64,000 nucleotides of DNA from contig JACPGP010000016.1 in the NCBI GenBank assembly GCA_016182425.1, positions 9,353 through 73,352 on the forward strand. The letters run 5' to 3'. Source of the DNA: Candidatus Levyibacteriota bacterium (GTDB lineage: Bacteria; Patescibacteriota; Microgenomatia; Levybacterales; UBA12049). A program made the position numbers and the translations under genes. Shown piece by piece: positions 15,442-36,757 of the stretch (its first letter is position 1; each line of letters opens with the position of its first letter). The notes under the pieces were generated by a model that saw only the letters and a list, made by a program, of their open reading frames with translations, was not told the origin of the DNA and did no database searches.

Positions 15442-17136
15442 ATGAAACTGCCCGCCCTACCCAAGCGTCTAGCGTCTAGCGTTGCGCGTCTAGTTTTTAT
15501 ATTTATTGCATTTTTCATTTTTACAACTCCTGCTTTTGCTCAAACAAGTCCTGCCTTAACCACCAACACTAACCCCGATGTGCCCAAAAATCTCCATACC
15601 TGGACTCAGAATGTCATGATCGAAGTAATGGCTGCCATGTCCTGCCAACTAACCGGTATTGATCCAATAAATCCAAAACAATCATGCCTTGGCGTTGACT
15701 CACAAACTGGCAAAATTGGTTATGTTCCTTCGGCAAATCAGGGACAAGCAGGCGGCGCTATTGGGGTGATGGGAAATCTTATTGCTATGACCTATACGCC
15801 TGCCATGCATACAGGTGATTATTTTGGCTACCTGGCTCAAAACTTTGGTGTTGTCAAGTCGGCCTATGCCCAAACAACAGGGGCAGGGTTTGACAGTCTT
15901 AACCCTATTATTAATCTCTGGATTGCATTTAGAAACCTTGTCTATCTTCTTTTTGTGGCCGTGTTTGCCATAGTAGGATTTGGCATTATGCTTCGCATTA
16001 ATATTGATCCAAGAACTGTGATGACCATTGCCAACCAACTGCCAAAAATGATCATTGCAATATTACTTGTGACTTTCTCCTTTGCCATTTCCGGCTTTCT
16101 TATTGACCTAATGTGGGCATCTATTTATGTGACAACAAATGTTATCGTTTCATCAGATCCAAACCAAGAACTCATATCTCAAGAAACTGCCCAAAAAATC
16201 GTGCAATCAGCAAATCCGATTGAAGCTGCAAATATTGCGGGGGAAGGGAAAGATAAAAAAATTGGAGGTTTAGCAAGGATTGCCTCTGAACCATCCGAAT
16301 CCTTAGGCGAGGTAGTTACTCCTCTTTTTGACAGTGGTATTGGGAAAAGCTCGCTTGGTGTAGCCACAAGCATTATATTTTTTAGCCTGGCGCAAAAAGC
16401 AGCCTCGCCTTTTCAGGAAGCAATCAAAGCGATAGGAAGCTGGACAGGCCTCCCGGGAAAAGCTATTACTCTCACAATATCTACTGCAATTGGCCTCCTT
16501 GCGGGAGTAGCGGGTGGCGCTAATGCTGGGTCTCTTGGGCCATTCTTTGTCAGCTGGATTGTATTTATCGTTATTGTTATCGCAATCCTCTGGGCACTGT
16601 TTCGACTTACTTTTCAGCTCGTTATTGCTTACGTTACTGTGCTTATTCACACTGTATTCTCGCCATTTTGGATTATTGGCGGGCTTTTCCCGGGAAGCCC
16701 CATTGGCTTTGGCGCCTGGTTTCGGGAAATGCTGGGCGCTCTGTCTGTCTTTCCAGTCACCATTGGCATGTTTCTTTTAGGAAGAATATTTATGGCTGCG
16801 TTTGACCAAAATGCACAAACTCACTTTGCTCCGCCCATGACCGGCAATCCCAATGCAGGTAATTTTGGCGCATTTATTGGACTTGGCATTATTCTTTTGA
16901 CACCGCAGGTTGTAACCATCATGAAGGATCTTTTTAAGTCCCCCCAGTTTAAGTACGGCGGCGCTATTGCCCAACCATTAGCCTTTGGGCTTGGTGCGGT
17001 CAACGCACCACAGATAGCACAGAAACTTGGTATGTGGGGATACTACTCTGGCCAGATGAGACATATACCAATAGTCGGTTCGTTTTTTGGCCGAGAGGAA
17101 ACAGCAAGAGGAAGACCACCTCAACCAGGAGGATAG
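15442..17136 (+). CDS. Polytopic membrane protein with signal peptide; possible VirB6/TrbL-like T4SS channel subunit
   Basis: The leader ends ...TPAFAQT and roughly 8-10 hydrophobic helices follow. Assignment rests on topology and neighbourhood only. TATACT (15429-15434) lies 7 nt before the ATG. Confidence 0.4.
   Translation: MKLPALPKRLASSVARLVFIFIAFFIFTTPAFAQTSPALTTNTNPDVPKNLHTWTQNVMIEVMAAMSCQLTGIDPINPKQSCLGVDSQTGKIGYVPSANQGQAGGAIGVMGNLIAMTYTPAMHTGDYFGYLAQNFGVVKSAYAQTTGAGFDSLNPIINLWIAFRNLVYLLFVAVFAIVGFGIMLRINIDPRTVMTIANQLPKMIIAILLVTFSFAISGFLIDLMWASIYVTTNVIVSSDPNQELISQETAQKIVQSANPIEAANIAGEGKDKKIGGLARIASEPSESLGEVVTPLFDSGIGKSSLGVATSIIFFSLAQKAASPFQEAIKAIGSWTGLPGKAITLTISTAIGLLAGVAGGANAGSLGPFFVSWIVFIVIVIAILWALFRLTFQLVIAYVTVLIHTVFSPFWIIGGLFPGSPIGFGAWFREMLGALSVFPVTIGMFLLGRIFMAAFDQNAQTHFAPPMTGNPNAGNFGAFIGLGIILLTPQVVTIMKDLFKSPQFKYGGAIAQPLAFGLGAVNAPQIAQKLGMWGYYSGQMRHIPIVGSFFGREETARGRPPQPGG
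15464..15491 (+). repeat. Heptanucleotide x4 array (AGCGTCT AGCGTCT AGCGTTG CGCGTCT) inside a CDS
   Basis: Read directly. It is 28 nt long and encodes KRLASSVARLV in the signal-peptide n-region. Confidence 0.8.
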
Positions 17137-17149
17137 CAATAGTTAATAA

Positions 17150-20100
17150 TTACGCTGCTTTCTTCAATTGTTCTAACTGCTCGTTAAGCATCATATAAAT
17201 AAATGCGGCGATAAGCATAGGAATCAACGATCTACTCATCGCCAATCCAAGGTGGTACCATTCAGCGCCCAATCGTTTCTTTAACTTTTCGTATTGGTGT
17301 TCATTCACAATTCCTGCCGCGTGCACTTCATGCAGAAATGCCTGTATATCCAGCTCGTCCCAGGCCATTTGCCCTCTTCCAAAGGCAACCTGGGCGTATG
17401 AAGCATCTCCAGAAACAAAACCATGAAACTTTCCTATGCCAAGCGGTAGTCTTCCCACCCAATCTTTTTTGTAAAACTTCGCCACGCCTTCTGCTAGATA
17501 CCGCATTGCTTCGCTAGCCACATCTTTGTCGTGTCCGGAGAGTGTGCTATGCATCTCCTTCATTGCCTTAACAATATCGCCCTGGCTTTTATACTCGGTT
17601 AAATTTTGAATAAACTTACCATACAGCCCGGCAGTGGCAACAACAGGCCCAATATCCGCATCCCAACGTCTCTTTATGGTATCGCCGGTAATAGCAGCAT
17701 AATCAAATGCCTCGTGCGGCATATCATCTGTGCCAAAGATAAAGGGTACTTTCCACCCTTTATGCTCAAGGTTATGCATTAACTTATCCATATGTTTTTC
17801 CTTAAACTCACCACGAATATGTTCTGCTAGTGCCTTAACTCGTTCCTCTTGTTCTTGTTGATGGCGATATTCTTCTGTGCCAACAGCTGCGGTCTTTAAT
17901 AAAGCAAAATCTTGGTTTTCAAGTCCTGTGGGAAAATGCAAATTCTCAATTTGCTCTGGAGGCTTTGGTTGTGGTCTGTCTTTTTCCTTTACTTCTCCCC
18001 GCGCAAGACGTTCGTTAAATTCGCGCAGACGTTCGTTAAAATTACGAAGTTCATCACTATCTAGATATTTTTTGTATGCATCAATGCGTCTTCGCAACAA
18101 GCGTTCCTGCACCAGAGCCAAGGCAGCTAAATCATGTTGTAATTCTTTACTTGTAATAATAATTTGTCCGGGAGAATCAGCTTCTTCTTTAATTTGATCT
18201 TTATAATGTTTTCTAAGCACGCCTTGGCGTAAACTGATAAGGTTGTTAAAAAATTTAAGCGGCGTTGTTTTTTCGGCTACTCCAATGGCACTACGAATAA
18301 CTTGTTCAGCTTGTTGCGCCTTGTTCTTATCATCACCAACTAATTCTCCTCTTTTTGCTTCAATCAAAAGCCCAACACCTATCAAAGGATTATTCTCATC
18401 ATATTGCAATAATCGGGCAGTGGCGCTGGCCAGGGTAACCTTATCACCTTTCCATCGCCAACCGGTCTGGGTAAAGATTGAGCCAATATGAAACGGGTTT
18501 TTCATCTGACCAAGCACATCATCTCCCCTATCGTTTACCAAAATATCAAGAATTTCCGATGAAGACATGGCCTTAAACCGTTTTAGCTCCTCTGTCGACC
18601 AAGGACCCCTGTTTCCCTCCAATTTATATCCAAGTATGGCATTTTGCCGTCCTCCCACGTCAAAACGCACTATCTGCTCGAAAAAGGCGATATTTTTTAC
18701 CAAGCCGTTGGCCCACCAGCTGTTTAAGGGGACATTTTTGGTGATGCCGTGCATGGCGGCAATTTCAAAAAACCGCGCCGTGACAATACCCATGCCCCGG
18801 GCAAGCGATATGGCCCGCTTTATCTCCCACTCATCCATGTCTTTTGGCAACACCCCCATGGCTTTTGCCTTTGTGGCCATATCCAACACCAGTTGCTCAA
18901 CCTCACCATATGTCCCATCCGGATTATTAACCATTGCTCTGGCCGGAAGATAACCGCCGTTTTTTGCCACCACCTCCAGCATGGCCTGCTCGTAAAGGCG
19001 CAGCATTGACGCAGTACCCCTTTTGCTAAACGCAATGTGGGCTTCCTCTCCGGCAAAGCGGCTGGCTGCTTTAATAATATCCTCTGCGCCAAAATTCCTG
19101 TTGACATAGTAGGTGATGGTATGAAGGTATTCTCTAAGCGTTTGCTCCCTATTTAACATTCTTTCTATCCGCCGCACCTTTTCCTGCTGATCTGGAGTTA
19201 ATAAATTACCTGACGGCAAAATCTTGTTTTCCGCCGCACGTGCCAACACATTATGGAAATCTCTAATCTCCATATCTCCTCCCGGGCCAATGGCTTCCCG
19301 CCATTCGTGGTCCGAATCCACATCTGCATATTTGAAAAGCCTGCTAAATTCTTTCTCCACTTCTTGCCATTTTCTCCATCCTTCAGTCCCCTCTGCTGCA
19401 TCGGGATCCGCGGCTAAAACGTTATCTATAAGCTGTTTTTGCTGATCTCTTCCCATGCGAATTTCACCGTACAGACCGGGGTGGAGAATTGATGAATCCG
19501 TATCCATCTGCGAACGAAGGGCTTCTTTTAACCATTGTGCTTTTGACAAGAGTTTCTGGGCTTGAGCTGCCTGTTCGTCTGCACCGCCCGCAATGCGAGA
19601 CAATTCATCAATGTACTCATTTAGACGACTACTATTTACCTCTGTCTCTGTTCTTAGATCTGTGTTTGGACTGGTTAATTCTCTGCTTAGCCGGTCTGCA
19701 ATATCACGGACTCCTCCTGTATATGTATTTTGCTCAAGATCAAAATCAGCAAGCGTTTGAGACTTAAAGTATGTCAGCTCCTGCGGCAGCTCATTTCTGC
19801 CCATTCTTTGATCTGCTTCTCTTCTCCTTCTATCACCCCCTTCTCTTCTTTCCTGCTCTGCTTGCCGCGCCGTTTCTTCTTCTCTTATCTGTCTTCTTAC
19901 CACTACCAACCGCTCGGTTACTCTTTCCAAAAGCTGTTCTTGCTGGGCTTGATCAACACCGGTCAGAGAACTTACGCTTCTTCGAAGCTCCTCTAAAATT
20001 TGTAATTGTTCTTGGAAATTGCCATCCGGAATATCCTCCAGCAATCTATTCGCAGTTCGCTCTTGCAGCCGCAGTTGAAAATCGGTAATACCTGTCTCTG

Positions 20101-20758
20101 GTATCCTTGGTGCTTCTCCACTCATGGGGAAAATGCCGTGTTCAATCATCATCTGCTGGGTTCTTCTCTCGTCAAGGGATAAGGTTTTCCCTTTATTTAC
20201 CTCTTCCCAAGCCTTTCTGAGCGGATCGTTTTCTTGTGATATACCCCCGAGAAGTTTTATGTAGAAACGAAGTGCCTCGTCGCCTATTTTTTCGTACAAC
20301 TCATCAACCAAAAAATATTCATACTCTCGTACTAAATCCCTTAGTCCCTTATCAGCTCCTTCTCTATGAAGCTCGTAGCCAAGAACAAACATCTCTTCTG
20401 CCGCTTTTTTAAGCTCGCCTTCATTCCAACTCTCAATTGGTTTCTCTTTTGCTTTCTTTTGAAAGGCCTCTATTTTTGCTCTTTGCTGACTGTTTGCTTC
20501 CTCTAAAATCTCTTTCTGCTGCAATCTGCTACCGATAAATTCTTTCCTCTGTTTTTTGGCGGCTGCTTCTTTCTTACTTCGTTCTTCTTGTTTTTCTTCT
20601 TCTGTTTGTGGCTTTCCGCCTTTTTTACCTGCGGCAGGTATTTGATGTGATTTGAGTATTTCTGGACTTGCTACTGTACCATCTGGCATAAAAATACCTC
20701 CATCTCCATGGTACGCGGTTCGTGGTTGTATTGTCAATCGAACTTCCTGCTCTTTCAT
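17150..20758 (-). CDS. Very large (1202 aa) Glu/Arg/Gln-rich coiled-coil protein with a single C-terminal TM helix; function unknown
   Basis: The ORF is uninterrupted and has no N-terminal signal. The C-terminus reads LGLAMSRSLIPMLIAAFIYMML. It is GC-richer than its surroundings (58% in the line at 18961). Confidence 0.7.
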   Translation of the reverse strand: MKEQEVRLTIQPRTAYHGDGGIFMPDGTVASPEILKSHQIPAAGKKGGKPQTEEEKQEERSKKEAAAKKQRKEFIGSRLQQKEILEEANSQQRAKIEAFQKKAKEKPIESWNEGELKKAAEEMFVLGYELHREGADKGLRDLVREYEYFLVDELYEKIGDEALRFYIKLLGGISQENDPLRKAWEEVNKGKTLSLDERRTQQMMIEHGIFPMSGEAPRIPETGITDFQLRLQERTANRLLEDIPDGNFQEQLQILEELRRSVSSLTGVDQAQQEQLLERVTERLVVVRRQIREEETARQAEQERREGGDRRRREADQRMGRNELPQELTYFKSQTLADFDLEQNTYTGGVRDIADRLSRELTSPNTDLRTETEVNSSRLNEYIDELSRIAGGADEQAAQAQKLLSKAQWLKEALRSQMDTDSSILHPGLYGEIRMGRDQQKQLIDNVLAADPDAAEGTEGWRKWQEVEKEFSRLFKYADVDSDHEWREAIGPGGDMEIRDFHNVLARAAENKILPSGNLLTPDQQEKVRRIERMLNREQTLREYLHTITYYVNRNFGAEDIIKAASRFAGEEAHIAFSKRGTASMLRLYEQAMLEVVAKNGGYLPARAMVNNPDGTYGEVEQLVLDMATKAKAMGVLPKDMDEWEIKRAISLARGMGIVTARFFEIAAMHGITKNVPLNSWWANGLVKNIAFFEQIVRFDVGGRQNAILGYKLEGNRGPWSTEELKRFKAMSSSEILDILVNDRGDDVLGQMKNPFHIGSIFTQTGWRWKGDKVTLASATARLLQYDENNPLIGVGLLIEAKRGELVGDDKNKAQQAEQVIRSAIGVAEKTTPLKFFNNLISLRQGVLRKHYKDQIKEEADSPGQIIITSKELQHDLAALALVQERLLRRRIDAYKKYLDSDELRNFNERLREFNERLARGEVKEKDRPQPKPPEQIENLHFPTGLENQDFALLKTAAVGTEEYRHQQEQEERVKALAEHIRGEFKEKHMDKLMHNLEHKGWKVPFIFGTDDMPHEAFDYAAITGDTIKRRWDADIGPVVATAGLYGKFIQNLTEYKSQGDIVKAMKEMHSTLSGHDKDVASEAMRYLAEGVAKFYKKDWVGRLPLGIGKFHGFVSGDASYAQVAFGRGQMAWDELDIQAFLHEVHAAGIVNEHQYEKLKKRLGAEWYHLGLAMSRSLIPMLIAAFIYMMLNEQLEQLKKAA

Positions 20759-20800
20759 ATGTACAGCAGTTTAGGGCAAATGGTATTGGACTACTTGATA

Positions 20801-20829
20801 TTTACATTACAAACACCTTACAGTATGAT
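20801..20829 (+). promoter_or_regulatory. Promoter overlapped by 11-bp-phased TTACA(A/G) repeats
   Basis: TTTACA (20801-20806), a 17-nt spacer, TATGAT (20824-20829), then 9 nt to ATG 20839. TTACAA, TTACAG and TTACAA start at 20807, 20818 and 20829. Confidence 0.45.
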
Positions 20830-20838
20830 TACAAAGCT

Positions 20839-22023
20839 ATGGAGCGATTCGAAGCATCTTTTCCCGCAGGCTACAGAAAAGATGACATTGCCAAAATTTG
20901 TGGCTTTGTTTTACAGGGCAAATTCTGTCAACTTGTTTGTCCTCCAGGAGGCGGCAAGGCAACGCTTTTGAAATTACTTGCTAATAACCAAAATGTCAGA
21001 AATTACCATTTGGGAAAGCAGGCAGAAACGACATATTTTTTATACCTAAATCTTCTTGAACTCTCTGATTTTACCGAAAGCAGTATCTATAAATTTCTTC
21101 TCTTATCTTTAAGTCGGATGCAGGGAAAAACACTTGATGCTACCTCATTACCATCAGATCCAGTTATACTGTTACAATTACTTAAAGACAGCATTGACGC
21201 AATTACCAATCAGGAAAAAAGGACCCCTGTGTTACTTCTTGACCATTTTGATGAATATCAAAACCATCTCTCCCGTTCTTTTTTCCAGATGCTGCGGAGT
21301 CTTAAAAGCTTAGCAAAGTATCGTTTTTCCGTTGTCTTTGCCACCCGTCGAGACTTAAAAGACTTAGTTGACCCAGAAATATTGAAAGAATTTTATGATT
21401 TTTTTGTCGATAACACTGTGTACATGAAACTATCCGATCCTGTAGCATCTTCTTTTATGTTCGAGAAAATTGAAAAAATTACCGAAAAAAAGTTAAGGCA
21501 AAAAGAAAAAGATGATCTTCTTACGTTAACAGGAGGACATGCAAAACTTCTTAAAGTATGTACAGAAACTGTTTTGCAAGAACAGACAAAAATAACTCTC
21601 GAAGATCTTCTTAAAAAACCGCTTGTCCGTGCAGCATTATTTGAGCTTTGGTACTTTGATAAGAAAATAATCATACCTCTGTTTAGCGCATTTGTTAAAC
21701 AGCTATCAGCAACGGCAAAAGAAGAACATCTTTCTTTCAATGAACAAACAAAAGAAATTATGAAAGGCACAACAGCAATATCGGATCTTTTTTCTCCACA
21801 AGAGTTCCGATTGCTCAAGTTCTTACTCGAAAATAAAGATCGAATTATCGAACGAGAAGAAATTATTGCAACTGTCTGGAGAGATGCAAAAACAACTGCA
21901 GGAGTTACCGAACAAGCCCTAGATCAGCTTATTTTCCGCCTTCGCCACAAAATCGAAGATTATCCAAATAATCCTGGACATCTGCAAACAATAAAGGGCC
22001 GAGGGTTTCGTTTTACCACTTGA
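20839..22023 (+). CDS. P-loop NTPase fused to a C-terminal OmpR/PhoB-type winged-helix DNA-binding domain
   Basis: Walker A is CPPGGGKAT and Walker B-like is VLLLDHFDE. The C-terminus (EREEIIATVWRD...LDQLIFRLRHKIE...IKGRGFRF) is the trans_reg_C pattern. The start is at MERFEAS, because 20722 would overlap the divergent gene. Confidence 0.75.
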   Translation: MERFEASFPAGYRKDDIAKICGFVLQGKFCQLVCPPGGGKATLLKLLANNQNVRNYHLGKQAETTYFLYLNLLELSDFTESSIYKFLLLSLSRMQGKTLDATSLPSDPVILLQLLKDSIDAITNQEKRTPVLLLDHFDEYQNHLSRSFFQMLRSLKSLAKYRFSVVFATRRDLKDLVDPEILKEFYDFFVDNTVYMKLSDPVASSFMFEKIEKITEKKLRQKEKDDLLTLTGGHAKLLKVCTETVLQEQTKITLEDLLKKPLVRAALFELWYFDKKIIIPLFSAFVKQLSATAKEEHLSFNEQTKEIMKGTTAISDLFSPQEFRLLKFLLENKDRIIEREEIIATVWRDAKTTAGVTEQALDQLIFRLRHKIEDYPNNPGHLQTIKGRGFRFTT

Positions 22024-22055: not shown

Positions 22056-22316
22056 ATGAACAATATATCCATTTCTGCCAGCGATCTTAAAAAACATATT
22101 TCTGATGTTCTCAATGACGTCTACTTTCACAAAAAAGTAGCTGTTATAGAACGCTACGGCAAGCCTATAGCCGAAATTGTACCTATAGAAAAAGGTGAAA
22201 CAAAATCATCCAATATTCAAAAGGCCTTAGATGCAACCTTTGGTATTCTACCCGATTTTCCTGACGTAACAAAGTACAGAAGGTCTCGAAAGAAAAAATT
22301 TGTTTTATCTTTATGA
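22056..22316 (+). CDS. Phd/YefM-type antitoxin
   Basis: ISASDLKKHISDVLNDVYFHKKVAVIERYGKPIAEIVPIE. It overlaps vapC by 4 nt (ATGA). Confidence 0.85.
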   Translation: MNNISISASDLKKHISDVLNDVYFHKKVAVIERYGKPIAEIVPIEKGETKSSNIQKALDATFGILPDFPDVTKYRRSRKKKFVLSL

Positions 22317-22699
22317 AATATCTTCTTGACACCGATATTGTCATTAATCATTTAAGAAAAAGGGTGATGATTAACAAAGCAGTGTTGGAAAGCGGGGCGG
22401 CAATTAGTATTATTACCTTAGGAGAACTTCTCTACGGAGCAGAAAAATCAGATAATCCAGAAACGTCAGTAACGATATTAGAAAAAAGTCTAAACATTTT
22501 AGGATTGGAGTTAGTAAATCTTAGTAAGAATATTATGGTAGAATTTGCCAAAATAAAGACCGTGCTTGAAAAAAATGGTATAAGATTGGAAGATTTTGAT
22601 TTACTTATCGCAGCGACTGCTAAAGCTAACTCGCTAACCTTAGTTACAAAAAACCTACACCACTTTACCAGAGTCCCAAACTTACAGATTATCAACTAA
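22313..22699 (+). CDS. vapC: PIN-domain toxin VapC
   Basis: MKYLLDTDIVINHL...LGELLYGAEKS...DLLIAATAKANSLTLVTKN. Confidence 0.9.
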   Translation: MKYLLDTDIVINHLRKRVMINKAVLESGAAISIITLGELLYGAEKSDNPETSVTILEKSLNILGLELVNLSKNIMVEFAKIKTVLEKNGIRLEDFDLLIAATAKANSLTLVTKNLHHFTRVPNLQIIN

Positions 22700-22703
22700 C
22701 TGC

Positions 22704-24056
22704 TTGCATCTTCCCCTCTTTTTGCTCTACGATGGAAGGGTGAGAAAAGTTTTTTCTATTTTTGTTTTCACATTTTTGTTTTTCTTCTTCTCATTATTTT
22801 TCTCATATAACAAGGCGTATGCTACCTGCTTGCTCAATGCAAACCCAGCAAACATTCCTGGAGGCTTTACAGGGGATATCATATTTACCAACAAATGTTT
22901 TACAGACCAAAGTACAAGCTATCAAATTTTGGTGTACCCCACCTGTCTTGATGACAAAACGTGCGAAGACAAAAACAAGCAGCCTTATGAACAGTATAAA
23001 AATTATCAAGATGGCAATTGGAATAAGAGCTCTAACACAGATGCTAGCGCAATCGAGAGCGTATTTGATTTTACTAATGTAAAATATAAAAATGGTGGCT
23101 CATGGAGAGTTAAATTCTGCCATGATTTAGGAAGAGGAGTAATAAATGAAACATGTAGCGTTAGTCAGGGGGGCACTGGCAATAGTGGAGAAGTTGCACA
23201 AGCAACTCTTACTATCTTTGCAGCCCCAACAGCAACGACTATTCCACCAACTCCTACTCCAACACCTCGCCAGGACCTGCCAAAACTTCTTAAAATTCCC
23301 AATCAATGTGTATACCAAATACCCATTAAGGAACTTCTTATAACTGTCACAAATGTCGTACCAAAAACTCATTACTACTGGTGGTGGCTAGGAGAACGCG
23401 GATCAGATTTTGCTATTGCTATTCCAAGTAATAACGATCAAACAATTACAACTTTTACAATACCAGGAAATAGAATCAGCGCTGGAACAAAAGTGCTTTG
23501 TGTCAACCACACCCTAGACGTTAAAGGAATCGATTTACCAGGGTGTAATATAGGTGATCCAAATACCCTCACATTTCAGTTTTCCGTGAGCACTCCAACT
23601 GGAGATCTCACCTGTGACAGAAGTGCAGGAGGAGCACCAATAGTCCCAACCATTAGCGCTCCAGTCCCCTCTGCCACCCCTGTTCCTCCTGCTCTTCTTC
23701 CTTGCGCTGAAGGACTCTCAAATCCAGATGATCCAAAATCAATAACAACAGATAAAGCTCTCATTAAAAAATGTACCAAGATTGACAGTGCGGTAGGACC
23801 AATAGATACAGACCCTGCGGAGTTTATTAAAAAAATCTTTACTGTGCTTTTGAGCATGGCTGGGGGATGGGCGGTATATCTTATTATTACTGCCGGATAC
23901 CAATTAATGTTTTCTCATGGCGAGGCAGAGCAAGTACAAGAAGCCAGAGACAAAATAACCTCGGCCATTGTCGGTCTTGTCTTTATGTTATTATCACTGG
24001 TGATACTACGAGTTATTGGAGTAGATATATTTCAGTTGCCCACATTTGGGCAATAA
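22704..24056 (+). CDS. Secreted Cys-rich passenger domain fused to a C-terminal VirB2/TrbC-like T4SS pilin module
   Basis: A signal-like N-terminus is followed by ~330 aa with PT-rich linkers (PTATTIPPTPTPTP). The pilin module reads LLSMAGGWAVYLIITAGYQLMFSHGEAEQVQEARDKITSAIVGLVFMLLSLVIL and aligns with the three downstream pilins. The start is TTG 22704 or GTG 22740. Confidence 0.65.
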   Translation: MHLPLFLLYDGRVRKVFSIFVFTFLFFFFSLFFSYNKAYATCLLNANPANIPGGFTGDIIFTNKCFTDQSTSYQILVYPTCLDDKTCEDKNKQPYEQYKNYQDGNWNKSSNTDASAIESVFDFTNVKYKNGGSWRVKFCHDLGRGVINETCSVSQGGTGNSGEVAQATLTIFAAPTATTIPPTPTPTPRQDLPKLLKIPNQCVYQIPIKELLITVTNVVPKTHYYWWWLGERGSDFAIAIPSNNDQTITTFTIPGNRISAGTKVLCVNHTLDVKGIDLPGCNIGDPNTLTFQFSVSTPTGDLTCDRSAGGAPIVPTISAPVPSATPVPPALLPCAEGLSNPDDPKSITTDKALIKKCTKIDSAVGPIDTDPAEFIKKIFTVLLSMAGGWAVYLIITAGYQLMFSHGEAEQVQEARDKITSAIVGLVFMLLSLVILRVIGVDIFQLPTFGQ

Positions 24057-24396
24057 AATTATGAAAGATCTTGCGCAAAATATCAAAATAGATGGGAAAC
24101 CCTTTCCTACTATTCAAAGCCTCCAGCCAATTTTTGACCTTGACAAAGAAGATAAATTTGGTACTAATATTTTGGTCTTCGGCGTGTACGTCATGATGGT
24201 TGTGGCAATTCTTTTGGCACTGGGATTTCTGATCTGGGGAGGGATCAGTTGGATTACCTCCGAAGGCGATAAAACCAAGCTGCAATCGGCCCGAAATACT
24301 GTGGTTATGGCTGTCATCGGGTTAATTATTACGCTCCTTGCATTTACGATTGTAAACGTCATCGGCTTCTTTTTTGGCCTGAAGCTTTTTGGGTAG
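24046..24396 (+). CDS. VirB2/TrbC-like T4SS pilin paralogue
   Basis: LALGFLIWGGISWITSEGDKTKLQSARNTVVMAVIGLIITLLAF: two TM helices joined by a short charged loop. Confidence 0.7.
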   Translation: MGNKIMKDLAQNIKIDGKPFPTIQSLQPIFDLDKEDKFGTNILVFGVYVMMVVAILLALGFLIWGGISWITSEGDKTKLQSARNTVVMAVIGLIITLLAFTIVNVIGFFFGLKLFG

Positions 24397-24402
24397 TGGG
24401 GC

Positions 24403-24431
24403 TTGACAAACCAAAAAAACCTGCTTATGAT
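24403..24431 (+). promoter_or_regulatory. Consensus promoter, leaderless type
   Basis: TTGACA (24403-24408), a 17-nt spacer, TATGAT (24426-24431), then 7 nt to ATG 24439. Confidence 0.55.
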
Positions 24432-24438
24432 TAAAGTA

Positions 24439-24846
24439 ATGAAAAAACTTATAGCTTCTATTCCTAGTCTAACTGCTGCGTTCCTCGCATTTCCTCCCAT
24501 TGCCTATGCTCAGAATATAATTGACTGCAACCAACCAGGAGGAGAACAATTCAAGGCGCTTTGTGCGCTTACCTCAACTGATCTTGGAAAACGCCTTAGT
24601 CAAGTTATCACCTTTGCCTTTGTTATTGCCATTATTATTGCTCTTGCCTTTCTTATTTGGGGAGGCATCAAGTGGATTACCTCGGGAGGAGATAAAACTG
24701 GTGTTGAAGAGGCAAGAAATCACGTCATCGCTGCTGTGGTAGGACTTATTATTGTTTTCTTATCTTATTTTATTCTCAACATCGTCGTTTTCTTCTTTAC
24801 CGGAACTAATCTCACCGACATTAAAATCCCAAAATTTAATCCATAA
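24439..24846 (+). CDS. VirB2/TrbC-like T4SS pilin paralogue with signal peptide
   Basis: The leader is MKKLIASIPSLTAAFLAFPPIAYA|QN. It is followed by ALAFLIWGGIKWITSGGDKTGVEEARNHVIAAVVGLIIVFLSY. Confidence 0.75.
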   Translation: MKKLIASIPSLTAAFLAFPPIAYAQNIIDCNQPGGEQFKALCALTSTDLGKRLSQVITFAFVIAIIIALAFLIWGGIKWITSGGDKTGVEEARNHVIAAVVGLIIVFLSYFILNIVVFFFTGTNLTDIKIPKFNP

Positions 24847-24894: not shown

Positions 24895-25227
24895 ATGGCT
24901 CCCACCTGGGATACTTGTGTTGCTATTATTAAAAACGCAAAAACCGACGTTGCTACCCTTGATTGTTTCCCGGTGATTTTCCAGCGTTTTGTTATTGCCG
25001 CATTCTGGTTTGCCGGTATCACGGCTGTTATTATGATCGCCTTTGCCGGAATTAGGATAATTTTAGCCCAAGGCGATGCCAAGAAACTGGAAGGCGCCCG
25101 CCACACCCTTACCTACGCTATTATTGGATTAGTTGTTATTTTTACAGCAGCGCTTATTGTCAACATTGTCGCTTTTGTTACAGATGTAACATGTATCAAT
25201 ACTGCATGGTACAATAACTGTAAATAA
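24895..25227 (+). CDS. VirB2/TrbC-like T4SS pilin paralogue
   Basis: VIMIAFAGIRIILAQGDAKKLEGARHTLTYAIIGLVVIFTAALIVNIV. Confidence 0.65.
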   Translation: MAPTWDTCVAIIKNAKTDVATLDCFPVIFQRFVIAAFWFAGITAVIMIAFAGIRIILAQGDAKKLEGARHTLTYAIIGLVVIFTAALIVNIVAFVTDVTCINTAWYNNCK

Positions 25228-27575: not shown

Positions 27576-27614
27576 CTTTTCCCAAAAAACTCTGATTTTG
27601 TACCCTGTTTGACC
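27576..27614. repeat. Left copy of the 39-nt direct repeat flanking the doc cassette
   Basis: cttttcCcaaaaaactctgattttgtAccctgtttgacc. It differs at 2 positions from the copy at 28325-28363. Confidence 0.85.
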
Positions 27615-28009
27615 TACTTTCTTTTTCTGGTGTGGGTTTTAAGCCATTTGGCGATTTCTTCGATAGCTAAATGCTTATTCTCAACACGAAGCGGAAAATC
27701 GATAAACTCCTTTTTATCTACTTTGAATTCGTATCCATTTATGTAAAGAAATCGAGCGGTTGTGGTGATAGACGTGCGTTTGTTTCCATCTGTAAACGCA
27801 TGATTGAAAATAAGCGAATGGAAAAGCGCGGCAGCTTTATCAAGAATTGTTGGATAAAGATCTTCTCCGCCAAATGACGCCTGTGGTCGAGCAAGCGCTG
27901 ACTGAATCAACCCTAAATCTCTTATACCATGACTCCCTCCATATCGCTCTACCATATCGTCATGAATGGCTAAAACAACATCTAAAGTGATATAAATAAT
28001 CCCTTTCAT
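27614..28009 (-). CDS. doc: Doc (death-on-curing) Fic-fold toxin
   Basis: HSLIFNHAFTDGNKRTS is the Doc-type HxFx(D)GNKR motif. The gene overlaps the antitoxin by 4 nt. Confidence 0.9.
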   Translation of the reverse strand: MKGIIYITLDVVLAIHDDMVERYGGSHGIRDLGLIQSALARPQASFGGEDLYPTILDKAAALFHSLIFNHAFTDGNKRTSITTTARFLYINGYEFKVDKKEFIDFPLRVENKHLAIEEIAKWLKTHTRKRK

Positions 28010-28266
28010 TTTTTGGCTAACTCTTTTAACGCATCTTTATATCGCGCGTTAAATCCCTTGAGCCATTTTAAGAATTCCGGCGTAAGAGAGCCCTTTACTA
28101 TTTTAGATTCTACTGGCACAACTGTAAGTGTTTCGGTATCAAAATCTTCATCTACTCTAACTTTCTGTCCTGGTTTTATCCCTATCTCGTCGGCAAATCC
28201 CCGCGGTATGGTTACAGCATATGAATTCCCAACTTGAATTACTTTTTGTAACATAGAACTTTTCAC
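28006..28266 (-). CDS. AbrB/MazE-fold antitoxin partner of Doc
   Basis: VIQVGNSYAVTIPRGFADEIGIKPGQKVRV. Confidence 0.85.
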   Translation of the reverse strand: MKSSMLQKVIQVGNSYAVTIPRGFADEIGIKPGQKVRVDEDFDTETLTVVPVESKIVKGSLTPEFLKWLKGFNARYKDALKELAKK

Positions 28267-28324
28267 CTCCCTTTATTTTGGTTATAACAATATTATAACA
28301 AAGCTGTTGTTCTGTCAATATCGA

Positions 28325-28363: not shown

Positions 28364-28396
28364 CAGCTGAGCTGGGTTTGACCTATTTTGATGATC

Positions 28397-28425
28397 TTGA
28401 ATTCGGATTTTTCACATTATATAAA
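28397..28425 (+). promoter_or_regulatory. Promoter of the prgI-virB4 operon (leaderless type)
   Basis: TTGAAT (28397-28402), a 17-nt spacer, TATAAA (28420-28425), then 7 nt to ATG 28433. Confidence 0.5.
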
Positions 28426-28432
28426 GAAAGTA

Positions 28433-29371
28433 ATGGAAAATCACCCTATCCCACAAGATGTAACCGGGTTTCAGTTTAAGTTAATTGGCAACATGACCAT
28501 CAAACAATTTGCCTACCTGGCAACAGGCATTGTTTTGGCTTGGGTTGTGTATGCCTTACCCTTAAGCCGGTTAATAACATTTCCTCTGGCTTTGATCCTT
28601 GGATTCTTGGGATTTGCGTTGGCCTTTCTCCCTATTGACGGCAGGCCAATGGATGCTATGGTAGCATACTTTATCAAGGCGCTCTTTACTCCCAATCAGT
28701 ATGTTTTTCAAAAAACCGCTCTCCAATCTGCTAATACATCGGCTATTCGCGTATTGCTTTCTACGCCCAAACCAGATCAGGCTCCAAAAGAAAACCTGCC
28801 GAAAGAAGAAAAACAACTCCAAACCAAAACAGAACAAACGGCGCCGCCCGAGCCCCAAACTGAAGAAAGCATCACTAGAAGTCAGTATGAATCTGTTATG
28901 GAGGCGCTTGGTCTTGCTAAAGCAGAAAAAGAACGGCTCGAGCAACAAATCCTAGTGCTTAAAGAAGCCCTGGCAAAAACCCAACAGCAAACAACAGCAG
29001 CACCACCGCCTACTGTCAAAAAAATTCCTGTAAAAACCTCACCGGCCACTCGGGGACTGCTTGTTTCCGATGCTCCCAACGTCCTTTCGGGCATTGTAAA
29101 AGATCCTAGAGGAAATGTATTATCAAACATCCTAGTTGAGGTCAAAGATAAAGACGGAAATCCTGTACGGGCTTTCAAAACTAACGCATTTGGTCAGTTT
29201 GCCTCTGCTACGCCGCTTCTTAATGGTGTTTATACACTTGAGTTCGACGATTCGCAAGGAAAGCAAAAATTCGATGCCGCCGAGCTTACCATAACAGGCG
29301 AGATTATTAACCCAATTGAAGTGACAAGTATCGATCAACGAGAAGAACTGCGAAAAACGTTATTTGGATAA
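28433..29371 (+). CDS. PrgI/VirB3-like T4SS membrane protein fused to a carboxypeptidase-regulatory-like beta-sandwich
   Basis: IPQDVTGFQFKLIGNMTIKQFAYLATGIVLAWVVYALPL...FLPIDGRPMDAMVAYFIKALFTP matches the PrgI pattern. The C-terminus reads GIVKDPRGNVLSNILVEVKDKDGNPVRAFKTNAFGQF...GVYTLEF. Confidence 0.65.
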   Translation: MENHPIPQDVTGFQFKLIGNMTIKQFAYLATGIVLAWVVYALPLSRLITFPLALILGFLGFALAFLPIDGRPMDAMVAYFIKALFTPNQYVFQKTALQSANTSAIRVLLSTPKPDQAPKENLPKEEKQLQTKTEQTAPPEPQTEESITRSQYESVMEALGLAKAEKERLEQQILVLKEALAKTQQQTTAAPPPTVKKIPVKTSPATRGLLVSDAPNVLSGIVKDPRGNVLSNILVEVKDKDGNPVRAFKTNAFGQFASATPLLNGVYTLEFDDSQGKQKFDAAELTITGEIINPIEVTSIDQREELRKTLFG

Positions 29372-29386
29372 TAACCATAAATTGCT

Positions 29387-31726
29387 ATGAACACTGCCCG
29401 AAGCATTTCAGCATCAACGCAGAAGTTTACCGAAATACAAGACATACGAGAAAACATTGTTTTACAAACAAGGGGAAACTCATGTTTGATAATCGAAGTG
29501 ACAGCCACCAATTTTTCCCTTCTTTCGCAAGAAGAGCAAGAGGCAAAAATCTTTTCATACGCATCGCTCCTAAACTCTCTCTCCTTCCCTATCCAAATCT
29601 TAATCCGCAATAAGCGCGTCGACATCTCTTCTTACACTAAAAAGTTAGATGAAAATCTGGCAAAACTGGCTCAAGAACAGCCCTCTCACCAGAAAAAAAT
29701 TTCTTACATTCAAAACTACCGATCTTTCGTGCAAGAACTAATTAAAGTAAATACGGTTTTGGACAAAACATTTTATATTATAATCTCTTTCTCTTCCTTG
29801 GAAAGCGGCATAGGCGGCGTGGTGATAAAAAAAGACGATTTTTTCCTCCAGGCCAAAGCAGGACTTCGTACCAAAGCGGAGTCTATTTTAAGCCAGCTGG
29901 GCCGGCTGGGACTTCGCAGTAAAATCCTGGATAAAGAACAGCTTATGCAACTTTTCTACAACATATACAACGATGGGTATGCTGGGGCATTGGCTTTTGA
30001 AACGCCGAATTCTTCCGTGGTTGATCTTATAGCGCCGCCTTCTGTTGAGATTGACTTTCGCTCCGTTCGTGTTGGCACAAAAACCGCTCGCACATTTTTT
30101 ATTGTCGGCTATCCACGTTTTGTTTCCGCGAATTGGCTAGCGCCCTTAGTCGATTTCGACCACGAACTCGATATTTCCTTTTTTATTTATCCCGCGTCAT
30201 CTCCAGACATTCTCTCGGATCTTCGGCGCAAAATCGCCGAGATGGAAGCAACCATCTCATCGCAAGCACAAGCTGGACAAGTTATTGACCCAACGGTAAC
30301 AGCAACCCTTGAGGATGCGCTGGGACTGCAGGAAGAACTGGCTAAGGGAGTTGAACGATTTTTTCTCTTCAGTCTTTATATAACGATATCTGCCGAAAAT
30401 CAAGCCGATCTTGAAAGCTCGGTAAAACGCCTCACAGCTACCATGGCCAGTCTTTTGCTTATAGCCAAACCAGCCACACTGCAAATGGAAGAGGGATATA
30501 AGGCCACTCTTCCATTGGGACAAGACAAGCTTTTTATGACCCGCAATATGGATACGACTTCTCTTGCTTCGATGTTTCCTTTTACCTCGGCCATGCTCAC
30601 GCAGGATAAAGGTACTCTCTACGGCATTAATCAGCAGAATAGTTCTCTTGTTATCTTCGATCGCTTTTCTCTGGAGAATGCCAACGAGGTTGTTTTTGGC
30701 AAGTCGGGCTCTGGCAAATCCTACTGCATTAAGCTGGAGATTCTGCGTCAGTTTATGCTTGGCACCGAGATAATTGTAATTGACCCTGAAGGAGAGTACG
30801 AAACCATTGCTCAAGCCTTAGGCGGCGAATATCTTAATTTTACGCCCTCCTCCCCGATTAAAATTAATCCTTTTGATCTTTCCGGGCTTTATGAAGAGGG
30901 CGAAAACGAGCTGGGACTAAAAATACTTTCTCTCCATGCGCTGTTAAAAATTGTTTTAGGAGAACTGGACGCTTCACACGACGCAATTTTAGATCGCGCG
31001 CTGGTGCAAACCTATCAACAAAAAGGTATTACCCATGATCCTAGCACCCAGAAAAATGAGCCGCCTCTTATGGAAGATCTCTACAAAGTACTTCTGGGCA
31101 TGGAGGACGCGGCAGCTTCGGAACTAGCTCTTCGCCTGGAAAAGTTTATCAAGGGAAGTTTAAGCGGTATTTTTAATCAGCAGTCAAACATCAACCTTGA
31201 CAATCCACTAACCGTCTTCTCCGTTAAACAACTCGAAGATCAGCTGCGGCCAATTGCCATGCACATTATTTTAGATTTTGTCTGGATCAGGATCCGAAAA
31301 ACTCTCAAAAGGCGGCTTTTGGTGTTGGATGAAGCATGGTATATGATGAAGTACGAAGACAGCGCATCCTTTGTCTATGGGATTGCCAAACGCGCCCGTA
31401 AATACTATTTAGGCTTAACAACCGCTACCCAGGACGTTGAGGATTTCCTCTCCACCGATTATGGAAAAGCTGTTTTATCTAATTCCTCACTGCAAATTTT
31501 ACTTAAGCAGGGAACATCAGAAATCGACATTGTCAGTAAAATCTTTTATCTTTCTTCGGGAGAAAAACAATTGCTTCTGGCAGCAAATATTGGTGAAGGG
31601 CTTTTTTTCGCCGGACAAAATCATGTGGCCATGAAGGTGGTAGCAGCGCCATTTGAACACCAACTCATTACCTCAAACCCGCAGGAAATTCTACAAAAAC
31701 AGCAAAATATACCACCAGCAGGATAA
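29387..31726 (+). CDS. virB4: VirB4/TraC/PrgJ-class T4SS ATPase
   Basis: Walker A is VVFGKSGSGKSY and Walker B is RRLLVLDEAWYMM. Size (779 aa) and the position after the prgI-like gene also fit. Confidence 0.9.
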   Translation: MNTARSISASTQKFTEIQDIRENIVLQTRGNSCLIIEVTATNFSLLSQEEQEAKIFSYASLLNSLSFPIQILIRNKRVDISSYTKKLDENLAKLAQEQPSHQKKISYIQNYRSFVQELIKVNTVLDKTFYIIISFSSLESGIGGVVIKKDDFFLQAKAGLRTKAESILSQLGRLGLRSKILDKEQLMQLFYNIYNDGYAGALAFETPNSSVVDLIAPPSVEIDFRSVRVGTKTARTFFIVGYPRFVSANWLAPLVDFDHELDISFFIYPASSPDILSDLRRKIAEMEATISSQAQAGQVIDPTVTATLEDALGLQEELAKGVERFFLFSLYITISAENQADLESSVKRLTATMASLLLIAKPATLQMEEGYKATLPLGQDKLFMTRNMDTTSLASMFPFTSAMLTQDKGTLYGINQQNSSLVIFDRFSLENANEVVFGKSGSGKSYCIKLEILRQFMLGTEIIVIDPEGEYETIAQALGGEYLNFTPSSPIKINPFDLSGLYEEGENELGLKILSLHALLKIVLGELDASHDAILDRALVQTYQQKGITHDPSTQKNEPPLMEDLYKVLLGMEDAAASELALRLEKFIKGSLSGIFNQQSNINLDNPLTVFSVKQLEDQLRPIAMHIILDFVWIRIRKTLKRRLLVLDEAWYMMKYEDSASFVYGIAKRARKYYLGLTTATQDVEDFLSTDYGKAVLSNSSLQILLKQGTSEIDIVSKIFYLSSGEKQLLLAANIGEGLFFAGQNHVAMKVVAAPFEHQLITSNPQEILQKQQNIPPAG

Positions 31727-33409: not shown

Positions 33410-33880
33410 ATGTTTAATATTATGTTTAAAAAAATAAGCATTATTACTTTTCTCTCTACCGTTAGTATTTTATTTATAATCGTGCTCTTTAATTACTTTA
33501 CAAAAAAAACAATTAATCAACCGCCACTTTTGCAGAATCCAACCCCTACAACTTTTATTCCTATAAACACAACTCCCTCTATTGAGGATCAATTAAAAAT
33601 TCAAACACAGAGTGACAAGAAGTTTTCTGATTGGCAAAAAGACATTTATAAAAATTATCCGTGGTATAATAGTCTTCCTCTTCAAACAGATAATTATTTT
33701 GTTTATTTTGATTTAGATGAAAAAAAATTTATTGCATACCTATATCCTAAAACATCCTCCAAAGCTTCTCTTGAGGAACAAGTTATCTCTTTCAAAAATG
33801 AAATAATTACACAATTGGGCGTGCTAGGTGCTGATAGCTCTAAATATATTTTTCAATGGATTATTCAGTCTGAACCCTAA
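33410..33880 (+). CDS. Small N-terminally anchored protein (VirB8-position candidate)
   Basis: A TM helix ISIITFLSTVSILFIIVLF is followed by a ~120-aa ectodomain. It overlaps the dnaN 3' end convergently by 20 nt. No motif recognised. Confidence 0.45.
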   Translation: MFNIMFKKISIITFLSTVSILFIIVLFNYFTKKTINQPPLLQNPTPTTFIPINTTPSIEDQLKIQTQSDKKFSDWQKDIYKNYPWYNSLPLQTDNYFVYFDLDEKKFIAYLYPKTSSKASLEEQVISFKNEIITQLGVLGADSSKYIFQWIIQSEP

Positions 33881-34979: not shown

Positions 34980-35022
34980 ACAATATATTATTCTTTAGTA
35001 GTTTTAGTAGTGTAATAGGAAA

Positions 35023-35065
35023 AGTGGAAAAAAGCAAGAAGAAGAAGGTAGAAAAATGTGGAAAA
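35023..35065. promoter_or_regulatory. DnaA-box-like pair in the dnaA-dnaN spacer (oriC candidate)
   Basis: AGTGGAAAA (35023-35031) matches the TGTGGATAA consensus at 7/9 and TGTGGAAAA (35057-35065) at 8/9. An AT tract tatattttaaaaaaaggttgattttttt follows. Confidence 0.5.
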
Positions 35066-35130
35066 CCAGTTGATAAACATGGGTATATGTTGTTTATATT
35101 TTAAAAAAAGGTTGATTTTTTTAAAGTTAT

Positions 35131-36501: not shown

Positions 36502-36528
36502 ACATTTTATGTATGAAGACTTTACTAA

Positions 36529-36567
36529 TGTGGATAACTTTTTGTCAAGAAGCATAAAATGGATAAA
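36529..36567. promoter_or_regulatory. DnaA boxes upstream of dnaA (oriC/autoregulation candidate)
   Basis: TGTGGATAA (36529-36537) is a perfect complement of TTATCCACA. ATGGATAAA (36559-36567) is a 7/9 match. Confidence 0.55.
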
Positions 36568-36586
36568 ACTATATCAAGACTGACGA

Positions 36587-36615
36587 TTTACAAATTTCGC
36601 AATTCTTGCTATACT
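36587..36615 (+). promoter_or_regulatory. rpmH promoter, leaderless type
   Basis: TTTACA (36587-36592), a 17-nt spacer, TATACT (36610-36615), then 7 nt to ATG 36623. Confidence 0.5.
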
Positions 36616-36622
36616 TTGCGTG

Positions 36623-36757
36623 ATGGAGAAATTTGTAAAACTTAAGAAAGTAAAAAGGAAGCGAAAACACGGTTTTCGCAGTCGCATGGAGACCCATACA
36701 GGTAGGAAAGTGTTGAAGCGAAGAAGAGATAAGAAGCGAAAAAGGCTTGCAGTGTAA
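36623..36757 (+). CDS. rpmH: 50S ribosomal protein L34
   Basis: My own translation; at 44 aa it is below the track cutoff. It reads MEKFVKLKKVKRKRKHGFRSRMETHTGRKVLKRRRDKKRKRLAV. The stop overlaps the rnpA ATG. Confidence 0.95.
   Translation: MEKFVKLKKVKRKRKHGFRSRMETHTGRKVLKRRRDKKRKRLAV

Follow-up and report, generated by a model that had tools for sequence, protein, structure and literature searches.

A conserved block of phased direct repeats as putative operator of an NTPase–winged-helix regulator at a type IV secretion-like locus of Microgenomates

Introduction

Transcriptional regulators of the OmpR/PhoB family have the same DNA-binding fold and recognise direct repeats of 6-7 bp, which follow each other with an 11-bp period and overlap promoter elements. 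The sites of one of them, TorR, known as tor boxes, lie in the divergent torR-torCAD intergenic region, beside the regulator's own gene. PhoB, OmpR and M. tuberculosis PhoP are described as binding direct repeats of ~7 bp with a 4-bp spacer (PMC4832192). Here we analyse a 64-kb stretch of DNA from Candidatus Levyibacteriota bacterium (the window, in whose coordinates all positions are given), in which a gene on the forward strand at 20839-22023, hereafter the regulator, encodes a protein that ends in an OmpR/PhoB-type winged helix and is preceded by a block of phased TTACA repeats. Judging from sequence comparison, we consider it probable, at roughly 0.6, that this block is the operator of the adjacent regulator at the bidirectional, leaderless promoter of a secretion-pilin locus.

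The regulator differs from PhoB, PhoP and TorR in having no receiver domain or partner kinase, and in carrying an N-terminal P-loop nucleoside triphosphatase (NTPase)-like module instead; moreover, pho boxes lie at the -35 element and upstream, whereas the window's repeats occupy spacer, -10 box and start site. SARP/AfsR proteins likewise unite an OmpR-type winged helix and a STAND/NOD-type NTPase in one polypeptide, and AfsR is described as binding direct repeats at promoters (PMC10936776). In the regulator, however, the order is reversed, with the winged helix at the C-terminus, there is no BTAD or TPR, the protein is far smaller (394-460 amino acids in the family), and it comes from a different phylum and a different target system. 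The MalT/LAL and GutR-type STAND factors share the layout in which a C-terminal DNA-binding domain follows an N-terminal NTPase that includes a lid and a winged helix, and MalT-type factors likely share the logic of nucleotide- or ligand-dependent self-association on repeated sites, but the DNA-binding domain of the regulator is OmpR-type and not LuxR-type, it lacks a large sensor arm and its Walker motifs are degenerate. The AAA+-like core, lid and DNA-binding winged helix or helix-turn-helix are also shared by ORC/Cdc6, PabY2304 (Pfam ATPase_2) and DnaA, of which DnaA cooperatively fills same-orientation box arrays with an 11-bp period; compared with ORC/Cdc6 and DnaA, the catalytic motifs of the regulator are non-canonical and its context is transcriptional. 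Finally, the same fusion occurs in conflict-type systems, as nSTAND1, nSTAND2 or AAA_35 NTPases with Trans_reg_C, although these adjoin kinase, TIR, TCAD9 or HATPase partners and not secretion loci. Repeat recognition by the OmpR family and NTPase-coupled one-component regulation, as in SARP/AfsR and MalT, are thus already known and fit the present case; the novelty lies in the order of the domains, in the lineage and in the system targeted.

Type IV secretion-like systems and arrays of pilins are considered to have a central part in the way in which bacteria of the candidate phyla radiation live on their hosts, and we know of no account of how these systems are regulated. In the literature we found no description of this regulator, of a fusion of an NTPase with a C-terminal Trans_reg_C domain, or of an operator for its remote relatives. 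A survey of these secretion loci makes no mention of a regulator, and reports that several type IV secretion-like genes are essential in the few strains in cultivation (PMC12102498). The present finding provides a regulator family tied to the secretion locus throughout the whole class, together with a precisely defined putative operator of ~40 bp with fixed geometry, and hence a likely, testable control switch for the secretion/pilin machinery of uncultivated, ultra-small Microgenomates (candidate phyla radiation). A further outcome is a description of compact, leaderless promoters set back to back in these genomes.

Phased repeats and their conservation

Direct reading of the sequence places TTACA at 20802, 20807, 20818 and 20829, ahead of an ATG at 20839, within the local sequence CTTGATATTTACATTACAAACACCTTACAGTATGATTACAAAGCTATG. 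The last three copies follow each other in exact 11-bp steps, precisely as the original prediction, an earlier reading of this DNA, had reported; the copy at 20802 is also present, but does not belong to the phased array because it is only 5 bp from the next. The conserved cis-regulatory block spans 20794-20834 on the forward strand. It opens with CTTGATAT, TTGATA at 20795-20800 being a conserved -35-like hexamer, and continues with three phased repeats, all on the same strand. Repeat 1, TTACAA (20807-20812), lies in the promoter spacer at block positions 13-18, with the consensus T-(T/A)-A-(C/T)-A-A. Repeat 2, TTACAG (20818-20823), follows 11 bp later at positions 24-29, with the consensus T-(T/A)-A-C-A-(A/G), and repeat 3, TTACAA (20829-20834), a further 11 bp on, falls at the expected transcription start (positions 35-39) and is more weakly conserved. 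The extra TTACA (20802-20806), 5 bp before repeat 1, sits within a partly conserved ATTTAC at block positions 6-11.

For comparison, one genome per species was scanned for orthologues of the regulator, giving 77 loci; ~6 kb on each side of each orthologue was covered, and the pattern searches extended over 885 kb. A block of the form CTTGAT-N7-T(T/A)A(C/T)AA-N5-T(T/A)ACA(A/G) recurs in the 110 nt upstream of orthologues, and its geometry is identical in all 49 instances, which were collected using CTTGA as the search anchor; after this anchor T is found in 45 and A in 44 of the 49. With a relaxed pattern, 59 of 68 species-level loci have the block beside the orthologue, and visibly degenerate versions are present at several of the remaining nine. 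The information profile of the 49 instances peaks at CTTGATAT, repeat 1 and repeat 2, followed by a weaker TTAC at +11, and is near zero in the flanks; the search pattern inflates the peaks at repeats 1 and 2, the third copy and an upstream GTTTA being unaffected by it. A clear third phased copy is present at a minimum of 14 loci besides the window (L013, L015, L017, L020, L037, L050, L053, L059, L065, L067, L071, L087, L098 and L102). The phasing is therefore kept in orthologous promoters across the Microgenomates and, as described below, was found again in metagenomes, so that one ground on which the original prediction might have fallen has gone.

The two loci L098 and L102 are informative, as the 53 nt from 20794 to 20846 are identical in both, while their proteins are 63% and 82% identical to the regulator, respectively, and the 35 nt directly upstream of the identical segment have diverged. 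A promoter that is identical despite 63% protein identity points to selection on the DNA.

The linkage of block and gene is near-exclusive. A looser two-repeat pattern gave 53 matches on both strands of the 885 kb, 30 of which lie no more than 150 nt upstream of an orthologue, nine are ~450-550 nt upstream, separated from it by a small inserted gene, and six lie just beyond the stop codon of the orthologue on the opposite strand, at loci in which the regulator is inverted. A weight-matrix scan returned 66 hits, 58 being the block itself, and no second recurrent position within 6 kb of the 77 orthologues. The motif had been expected possibly to recur upstream of pilin, prgI or other promoters, and this was not borne out, no further sites being found at pilin or prgI promoters in the window or in the orthologous loci, nor at other promoters of the window. 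The one additional two-repeat match in the window, at 28285, was discarded as an extra operator, since it corresponds to two copies of TTATAACAA in front of a toxin-antitoxin pair.

Metagenomes were searched with the exact pattern CTTGATAT-N5-TTACAA-N5-TTACA, the gene not being used as a criterion. The 59 matches reduce, when grouped by eye, to about 37 independent sequences, with one unrelated coding sequence contributing 13 copies and another four. The orthologue is adjacent in 19 of the metagenome loci (family hidden Markov model (HMM), E <= 1e-22), and five more have secretion-locus neighbours (L089, L093, L090, L129 and L081), two of these being cut at the contig end. Three other contigs (L078, L096 and L105) carry a block-like CTTGATATT..CCTTACAAAATC.TTACAA, then ..TGTAAAGATATTGAC, with no orthologue detectable on them; these may represent a related operator of another lineage, or chance matches.

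The start of the regulator has a direct bearing on the nature of the repeats. Across 22 aligned homologues translation consistently begins at the Met of 20839, within the pattern M-E-x-F-E-S-x-F-P, and the repeats are therefore non-coding. Starts at GTG 20722 or TTG 20731 were rejected because homologues begin at Met 20839; the former would also overlap the divergent gene, and what looks like protein conservation before 20839 is really conservation of the DNA. The reservation that a true start at 20722 would make the repeats coding thus falls away.

The phased repeats are real and far beyond chance. The arrangement TTACA-N6-TTACA-N6-TTACA occurs once in the window, with one mismatch tolerated, and in none of 100 shuffles, although this test was chosen post hoc, after the pattern had been noticed. 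A fairer null, in which any 5-mer may occur three times at a 10- or 11-bp period, gives 0.105 cases per 64 kb of random sequence of the same composition and about 1.3e-4 cases per 80-bp intergenic region. The only other triple 5-mer repeat of this period in the window is AATCTAA, present three times (662, 672 and 682) with an exact 10-bp period; this array (656-702) sits inside TTGACA(656)-17-TATAAT(679), upstream of a Fic-domain gene at 700-1749.

Domain structure of the regulator

A database search returned 395 homologues of the regulator, the named ones coming from Curtissbacteria, Levybacteria and other Patescibacteria, and included an identical 394-amino acid protein (P0001); lengths in the family range from 394 to 460 amino acids. 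From the N- to the C-terminus the regulator (394 amino acids) comprises an NTPase module, a helical lid, the remnant of a winged helix and an OmpR/PhoB-type winged helix. Using Pfam, the C-terminal part was matched by Trans_reg_C (residues 319-392, E 8.7e-18, 64.6 bits against a cut-off of 26.2), and the N-terminal part (residues 28-184) weakly by P-loop families, namely AAA (22.6 bits, cut-off 21.2) and AAA_22 (26.4 bits, cut-off 27). We were thus able to confirm the proposed order of domains, NTPase first and OmpR-type winged helix last, and that, with the winged helix C-terminal and no BTAD match, it is opposite to that of SARP/AfsR. No receiver domain (Response_reg) was matched in the regulator by Pfam, and the NCBIfam response-regulator models align to residues ~290-394 alone, with scores far under their cut-offs. 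Pfam also matched no BTAD and no sensor arm of TPR, WD40 or LRR repeats, and the protein terminates with the winged helix.

The DNA-binding domain occupies residues ~296-394 (21724-22020, forward strand) and consists of a β-sheet, three helices and a C-terminal hairpin wing. In the AlphaFold model of the regulator, which has a predicted local distance difference test score (pLDDT) of 93.8, its elements are the strands 298-301 and 306-309, the helices 320-331, 339-346 and 358-372, and the strands 382-385 and 389-392, with pLDDT above 85. Profile matches of the regulator in the PDB are solely to DNA-binding domains of the OmpR/PhoB family, such as those of PhoB, RegX3, KdpE and WalR. Among 64 family members, all of which match Trans_reg_C, the recognition helix follows A-x-D-Q-x-x-F-R-L-R-x-K-x-E, in which A, D, Q, R, R, K and E are invariant and F (58 of 64) and L (61 of 64) nearly so, and most of the named residues of the wing, T-x-K-G-x-G-x-x-F, are also invariant. 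A near-invariant recognition helix fits with a conserved DNA motif.

In the NTPase module both nucleotide-binding motifs named in the original prediction (CPPGGGKAT and VLLLDHFDE) are present, but neither has the canonical form. The Walker A motif is a deviant P-G-G-G-K-A-T (residues 36-42; 20944-20964, forward strand), with the family pattern P-G-x-G-[K/R]-[A/S]-[T/N], and reads GKAT in 51 and GRSN in 12 of the 64 sequences. The Walker B region, VLLLDHFDE (residues 131-139; 21229-21255, forward strand), has the family pattern D-[H/R]-F-[D/E]-E, in which D135 is invariant and the next residue is His (50 sequences) or Arg (14) and not Glu. The two vary together, GKAT occurring with DHFDE and GRSN with DRFEE. 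By motif, we take hhhhDxFDE and the end of strand 4, ATRRD or SLNRP, to resemble hhhhDGhDE and TSRP of NACHT proteins. Because Walker A lacks a Ser/Thr after the Lys and Walker B lacks the catalytic Glu, hydrolysis of ATP by this module seems doubtful, and so does the suggestion that the regulator is a nucleotide-gated switch.

At the sequence level the N-terminal part has no match in the PDB, where only the C-terminal domain is matched. The best matches of the model in the PDB are PabY2304, archaeal Cdc6/ORC, ORC4/5, TnsC, MuB and DnaA domain III. Foldseek E-values are 1e-7 to 1e-8 against PabY2304 (2qen), Cdc6 (1fnn), archaeal ORC2 (1w5s, 1w5t) and ORC4, with template modelling (TM) scores of 0.3-0.56; sequence similarity to ORC/Cdc6, PabY2304 and DnaA is only 10-16%. 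The model of a relative, P0005 (pLDDT 92.1), has a complete three-part module, in which a further winged-helix subdomain separates the lid from the DNA-binding domain, and its structural matches include the STAND protein CED-4 at rank 38. In the window this subdomain is deleted: the regulator lacks ~35 amino acids (consensus LTPQEQQ...L..L.K) at about 21655-21665 (residues 273-276), which most homologues keep and which are partially deleted in the closest relatives, P0002 and P0003.

Classification of the NTPase by HMM, as had been suggested, was carried out, and the profiles are ambiguous between the AAA and STAND families. Matches among the 64 homologues are to AAA_22 (32), AAA (13), NACHT (12), NPHP3_N (12), nSTAND1 (6), AAA_35 (6) and AAA_16 (3), those of STAND type (NACHT, NPHP3_N, nSTAND1, AAA_16) being sub-threshold or marginal, and the protein of the window itself has no STAND-family profile match. 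We conclude that the N-terminal module appears to lie on the border between ORC/Cdc6 and STAND. Used alone as a query against 1.84 billion representatives, residues 1-290 retrieved 398 clusters. Trans_reg_C forms the C-terminal end in all ten of the remote homologues scanned as well; several of these exceed the Pfam thresholds of nSTAND1 or nSTAND2, and some carry kinase or TCAD9-TIR additions; the shared C-terminal domain indicates that the fusion is older and wider than the secretion locus. One remote homologue, P0203 (AAA_35 with Trans_reg_C; L137 36-9356), lies within a four-gene cluster, its partners being a STAND-like NTPase, a 1490-amino acid AAA_35-GAF-HATPase protein and a receiver-TCAD9 protein. 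The cluster resembles, as these are reportedly built, the NTP-dependent conflict systems of Kaur et al. 2020.

Promoter architecture

The block is also part of two promoters. In nearly all of the 49 instances GTTTA is found at block positions -25 to -21, with zero length variation, and on the other strand this reads TAAAC(T), the -10 box of the divergent gene, which in the window is TAAACT (20768-20773, reverse strand), 9 nt before the divergent ATG (20758). The fixed distance between GTTTA and the block implies that the two promoters form one rigid back-to-back unit, and supports, as a physical coupling, the earlier proposal that the element is shared with the promoter of the divergent gene. 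In the rightward direction the window's repeats extend over the promoter spacer, the -10 box and the start site; with respect to the divergent gene they lie ~45-60 bp upstream of its start site.

For the rightward promoter two readings were compared. A promoter scan gives TTGATA-18-TACAGT a score of 9 of 12, the candidate -10 TACAGT (20819-24) being overlapped by repeat 2, and the promoter of the original prediction, TTTACA-17-TATGAT (20801-20829, forward strand), a score of 10 of 12. For most genes in the window, a TATAAT-like box is situated 6-10 nt ahead of the ATG and a Shine-Dalgarno sequence is lacking, for example at 10389, 15442, 39886, 47520, 49813 and 57033, and leaderless mRNAs thus seem to be the normal mode in this organism. 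For this lineage the rule favours TATGAT (20824-29), 9 nt ahead of the ATG, as the -10 box, so that this half of the predicted promoter holds; TTTACA as its -35 element does not, the conserved -35 being TTGATA at 20795-20800.

The relation of the block to the -10 box changes between lineages. In loci of the Levybacteria type repeat 2 is itself the -10 box, TACAAT, 6 nt before the ATG, and TTGATA lies 18 nt upstream, whereas in loci of the Curtissbacteria type both repeats precede a separate TATAAT, which is about 26 nt from TTGATA. That the form of the block stays constant while its relation to the -10 box changes is the main argument for a protein-binding module that is more than a sigma-70 promoter.

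Two kinds of rearrangement affect the spacing of block and regulator. A small gene (119-134 amino acids) lies between them at loci L001, L002, L004, L010, L014-L017, L020, L036, L043, L045, L049, L050 and L059, ~80-550 nt upstream of the orthologue. By eye its product resembles the four-helix-bundle type of 23S rRNA intervening sequences, and copies of several sequence types suggest repeated insertion at the same spot. At other loci (L037, L039, L044, L047, L061, L064 and L065; also L082, L112 and L114) the regulator gene alone is inverted, and the block has kept its place next to the large divergent gene, lying 37-58 nt beyond the stop codon of the regulator and on the other strand. No convincing inverted repeats flank the inverted regulator, so an invertible DNA switch was rejected in favour of an evolutionary rearrangement. 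The block promoter at such loci would, from its orientation, read antisense through the regulator towards the pilins. As inverted loci keep the block with the divergent gene, the conserved target looks like the pair of divergent gene and pilin operon.

A proposed mechanism and its alternatives

We propose that the regulator is a one-component transcription factor whose C-terminal winged helix would recognise direct repeats of the form T(T/A)ACA(A/G) at 11-bp spacing, probably with two or three subunits arrayed head to tail. A rigid block of ~55 bp would link the core promoter of the regulator-pilin operon with the divergent gene's -10 box, and its occupancy would block RNA polymerase, leading to repression of the regulator and the downstream pilin genes; rightward repression is predicted from the position of the repeats over spacer, -10 box and start site. 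On the divergent side, a factor bound ~45-60 bp upstream of the start site could activate. As for the N-terminal ORC/Cdc6- or STAND-like module, its role is most likely to promote self-association at the phased sites or to sense a ligand, and it is probably no ATP-hydrolysing motor. That the cis element is functional is a near certainty; that the regulator is its binder we infer, as we do the sign of regulation and any dependence on nucleotide.

A more far-reaching form of this proposal, which we offer as a tentative possibility, is an initiator-like switch, in which the degenerate module would polymerise head-to-tail on the phased repeats, in the manner of DnaA on its arrays of low-affinity boxes, and so direct the bidirectional promoter. 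If so, the switch would choose between a fast-evolving giant tail-anchored protein and a variable pilin array, it would amount to master on/off control of the host-contact machinery across the Microgenomates, and in lineages with an inverted regulator the same promoter would read antisense through the regulator.

Several observations weigh against the operator proposal. Ordinary -35 and -10 elements overlap with parts of the block, so that promoter function accounts for some of its conservation, and Walker A and B of the regulator are non-canonical. The copy in the window, lacking the winged-helix subdomain, may work differently from its relatives. At inverted loci the block is not at the 5' end of the regulator, and autoregulation is thus not universal. 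Covariation between helix and repeat is only suggestive: in the clade with the helix (I/V)SDEAIDQM repeat 1 is TAACA in 16 of 17 loci, and in the clade with VT(D/E)QALDQL it is mostly TTACA or TTATA, but this is essentially a single phylogenetic split, and L017 in the first clade and L033 and L043 in the second are exceptions.

One alternative is that the block is nothing more than a strong, conserved core promoter of the pilin operon, made up of the -35 TTGATA, the spacer, the -10 TACAAT and a leaderless start, with the repeats a by-product of TACAAT within TTACAAT and the regulator binding elsewhere. TTGATA-18-TACAGT/TACAAT does fit sigma-70 geometry, and promoters in the window are as a rule leaderless, with the -10 box 6-10 nt ahead of the ATG. 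However, repeat 1, located in the spacer, a part of the promoter not read by sigma-70, is about as conserved as the hexamers; TTGATA in Curtissbacteria-type loci, ~26 nt from a separate TATAAT, is too distant to be its -35; the third copy at +11 recurs in many loci; and the other promoters of the window have no TTACA repeats. We therefore regard this explanation as unlikely.

A similarly poor prospect attaches to the idea that the block is the operator of a different DNA-binding protein, be it a global regulator or a product encoded elsewhere, and that the regulator has its targets outside the regions examined. The scan covered ~6 kb on each side of the orthologues plus one 64-kb window, and at inverted loci the block is away from the regulator's own promoter, both of which leave room for such a protein. 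Yet block and gene remain within 40-600 bp of each other through insertion of the small gene and inversion of the regulator, direct repeats with an 11-bp period are the form bound by OmpR-type domains, and the unbiased metagenome matches are dominated by the neighbourhood of the regulator.

It is very improbable that the regulator is the initiator, of ORC/Cdc6 or DnaA type, of a former mobile element, with the repeats as iterons for replication or partition in place of a transcriptional operator. The best structural matches (Cdc6/ORC, PabY2304, TnsC, MuB and DnaA domain III), the phased, direct arrangement of the repeats and the descent of the secretion locus from conjugation machinery (PMC12102498) could be cited in its favour, but there are only two or three repeats, their positions coincide exactly with promoter elements between two divergent genes, DNA binding is assigned to Trans_reg_C, a domain of the transcription-factor type, and the locus is chromosomal and syntenic across the class. 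The chromosome also has its own dnaA and dnaN, with the GC-skew minimum ~14 kb away, and on these grounds a replication-origin role for the block was rejected. As for the phasing being an accident of AT-rich intergenic DNA, ~10% of random 64-kb sequences of this composition have some 5-mer in triplicate with a 10- or 11-bp period, but the figure of ~1e-4 for this 80-bp region and the recurrence of the phased motif at 59 of 68 orthologous loci, which already refutes such an accident, leave it with practically no credit.

The secretion-like locus and its neighbourhood

The regulator is part of a conserved gene order made up of a 564-amino acid protein, a large opposite-strand gene, the regulator, four T4SS_pilin genes, a PrgI-like gene and a VirB4-type ATPase. 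VirB4 ATPase, PrgI/VirB3-like protein and T4SS pilin array, whose joint presence defines a type IV secretion-like locus of the monoderm conjugation type in Patescibacteria, stand together here, and Pfam content and synteny thus bear out the placing of the regulator within a secretion locus. The four pilin genes (22704-24056, 24046-24396, 24403-24846 and 24895-25227, forward strand; Pfam PF18895) have counterparts downstream of the regulator in 47-49 of the 77 loci. The PrgI-like gene (28388-29371, forward strand; Pfam PrgI) and the gene for the VirB4/TraG-type P-loop ATPase (29387-31726, forward strand; Pfam P-loop_TraG and CagE_TrbE_VirB) are syntenic in 47-50. In about 17 loci the gap between the regulator and the next gene is below 55 nt, which fits a single operon of regulator and pilins, and from its position the regulator looks like the normal first gene of the pilin operon.

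On the other side, the divergent gene (17150-20758, reverse strand) encodes a 1202-amino acid protein that is rich in Lys and Glu in its N-terminal region and has one hydrophobic helix, at the C-terminus, which suggests that it may be tail-anchored; it has no Pfam, NCBIfam or PDB sequence match. A large divergent open reading frame of 770-1600 amino acids, often with the N-terminus MKEQ, occupies this position in nearly all loci, and the protein is fast-evolving, tblastn similarity being found in only five of the 77 syntenic loci. The 564-amino acid neighbour (15442-17136, forward strand) is present in 58 of the 77 and has no match in Pfam, NCBIfam or the PDB.

Between the regulator and the pilins the window has a Phd-like antitoxin and PIN toxin pair (22056-22699, forward strand; Pfam), limited to this lineage, as it is found in none of the 77 genome loci and is present in L098. 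The Phd gene has a leaderless promoter of its own, TTGACA-17-TAAAAT-7-ATG, with the ATG at 22056. A second inserted toxin-antitoxin pair, AbrB-like/Doc (Fic family), lies at 27614-28266, and its promoter region contains the two direct copies of TTATAACAA, at about 28283-28303.

The origin region of the chromosome spans 33861-38106, with dnaN (33861-34979, reverse strand), dnaA (35131-36555, reverse strand) and yidC (37291-38106, forward strand), and the cumulative GC-skew minimum falls at these genes, about 14 kb from the block. The secretion locus is thereby 2-15 kb from oriC, in agreement with the report that type IV secretion-like loci sit near the origin in this class (PMC12102498).

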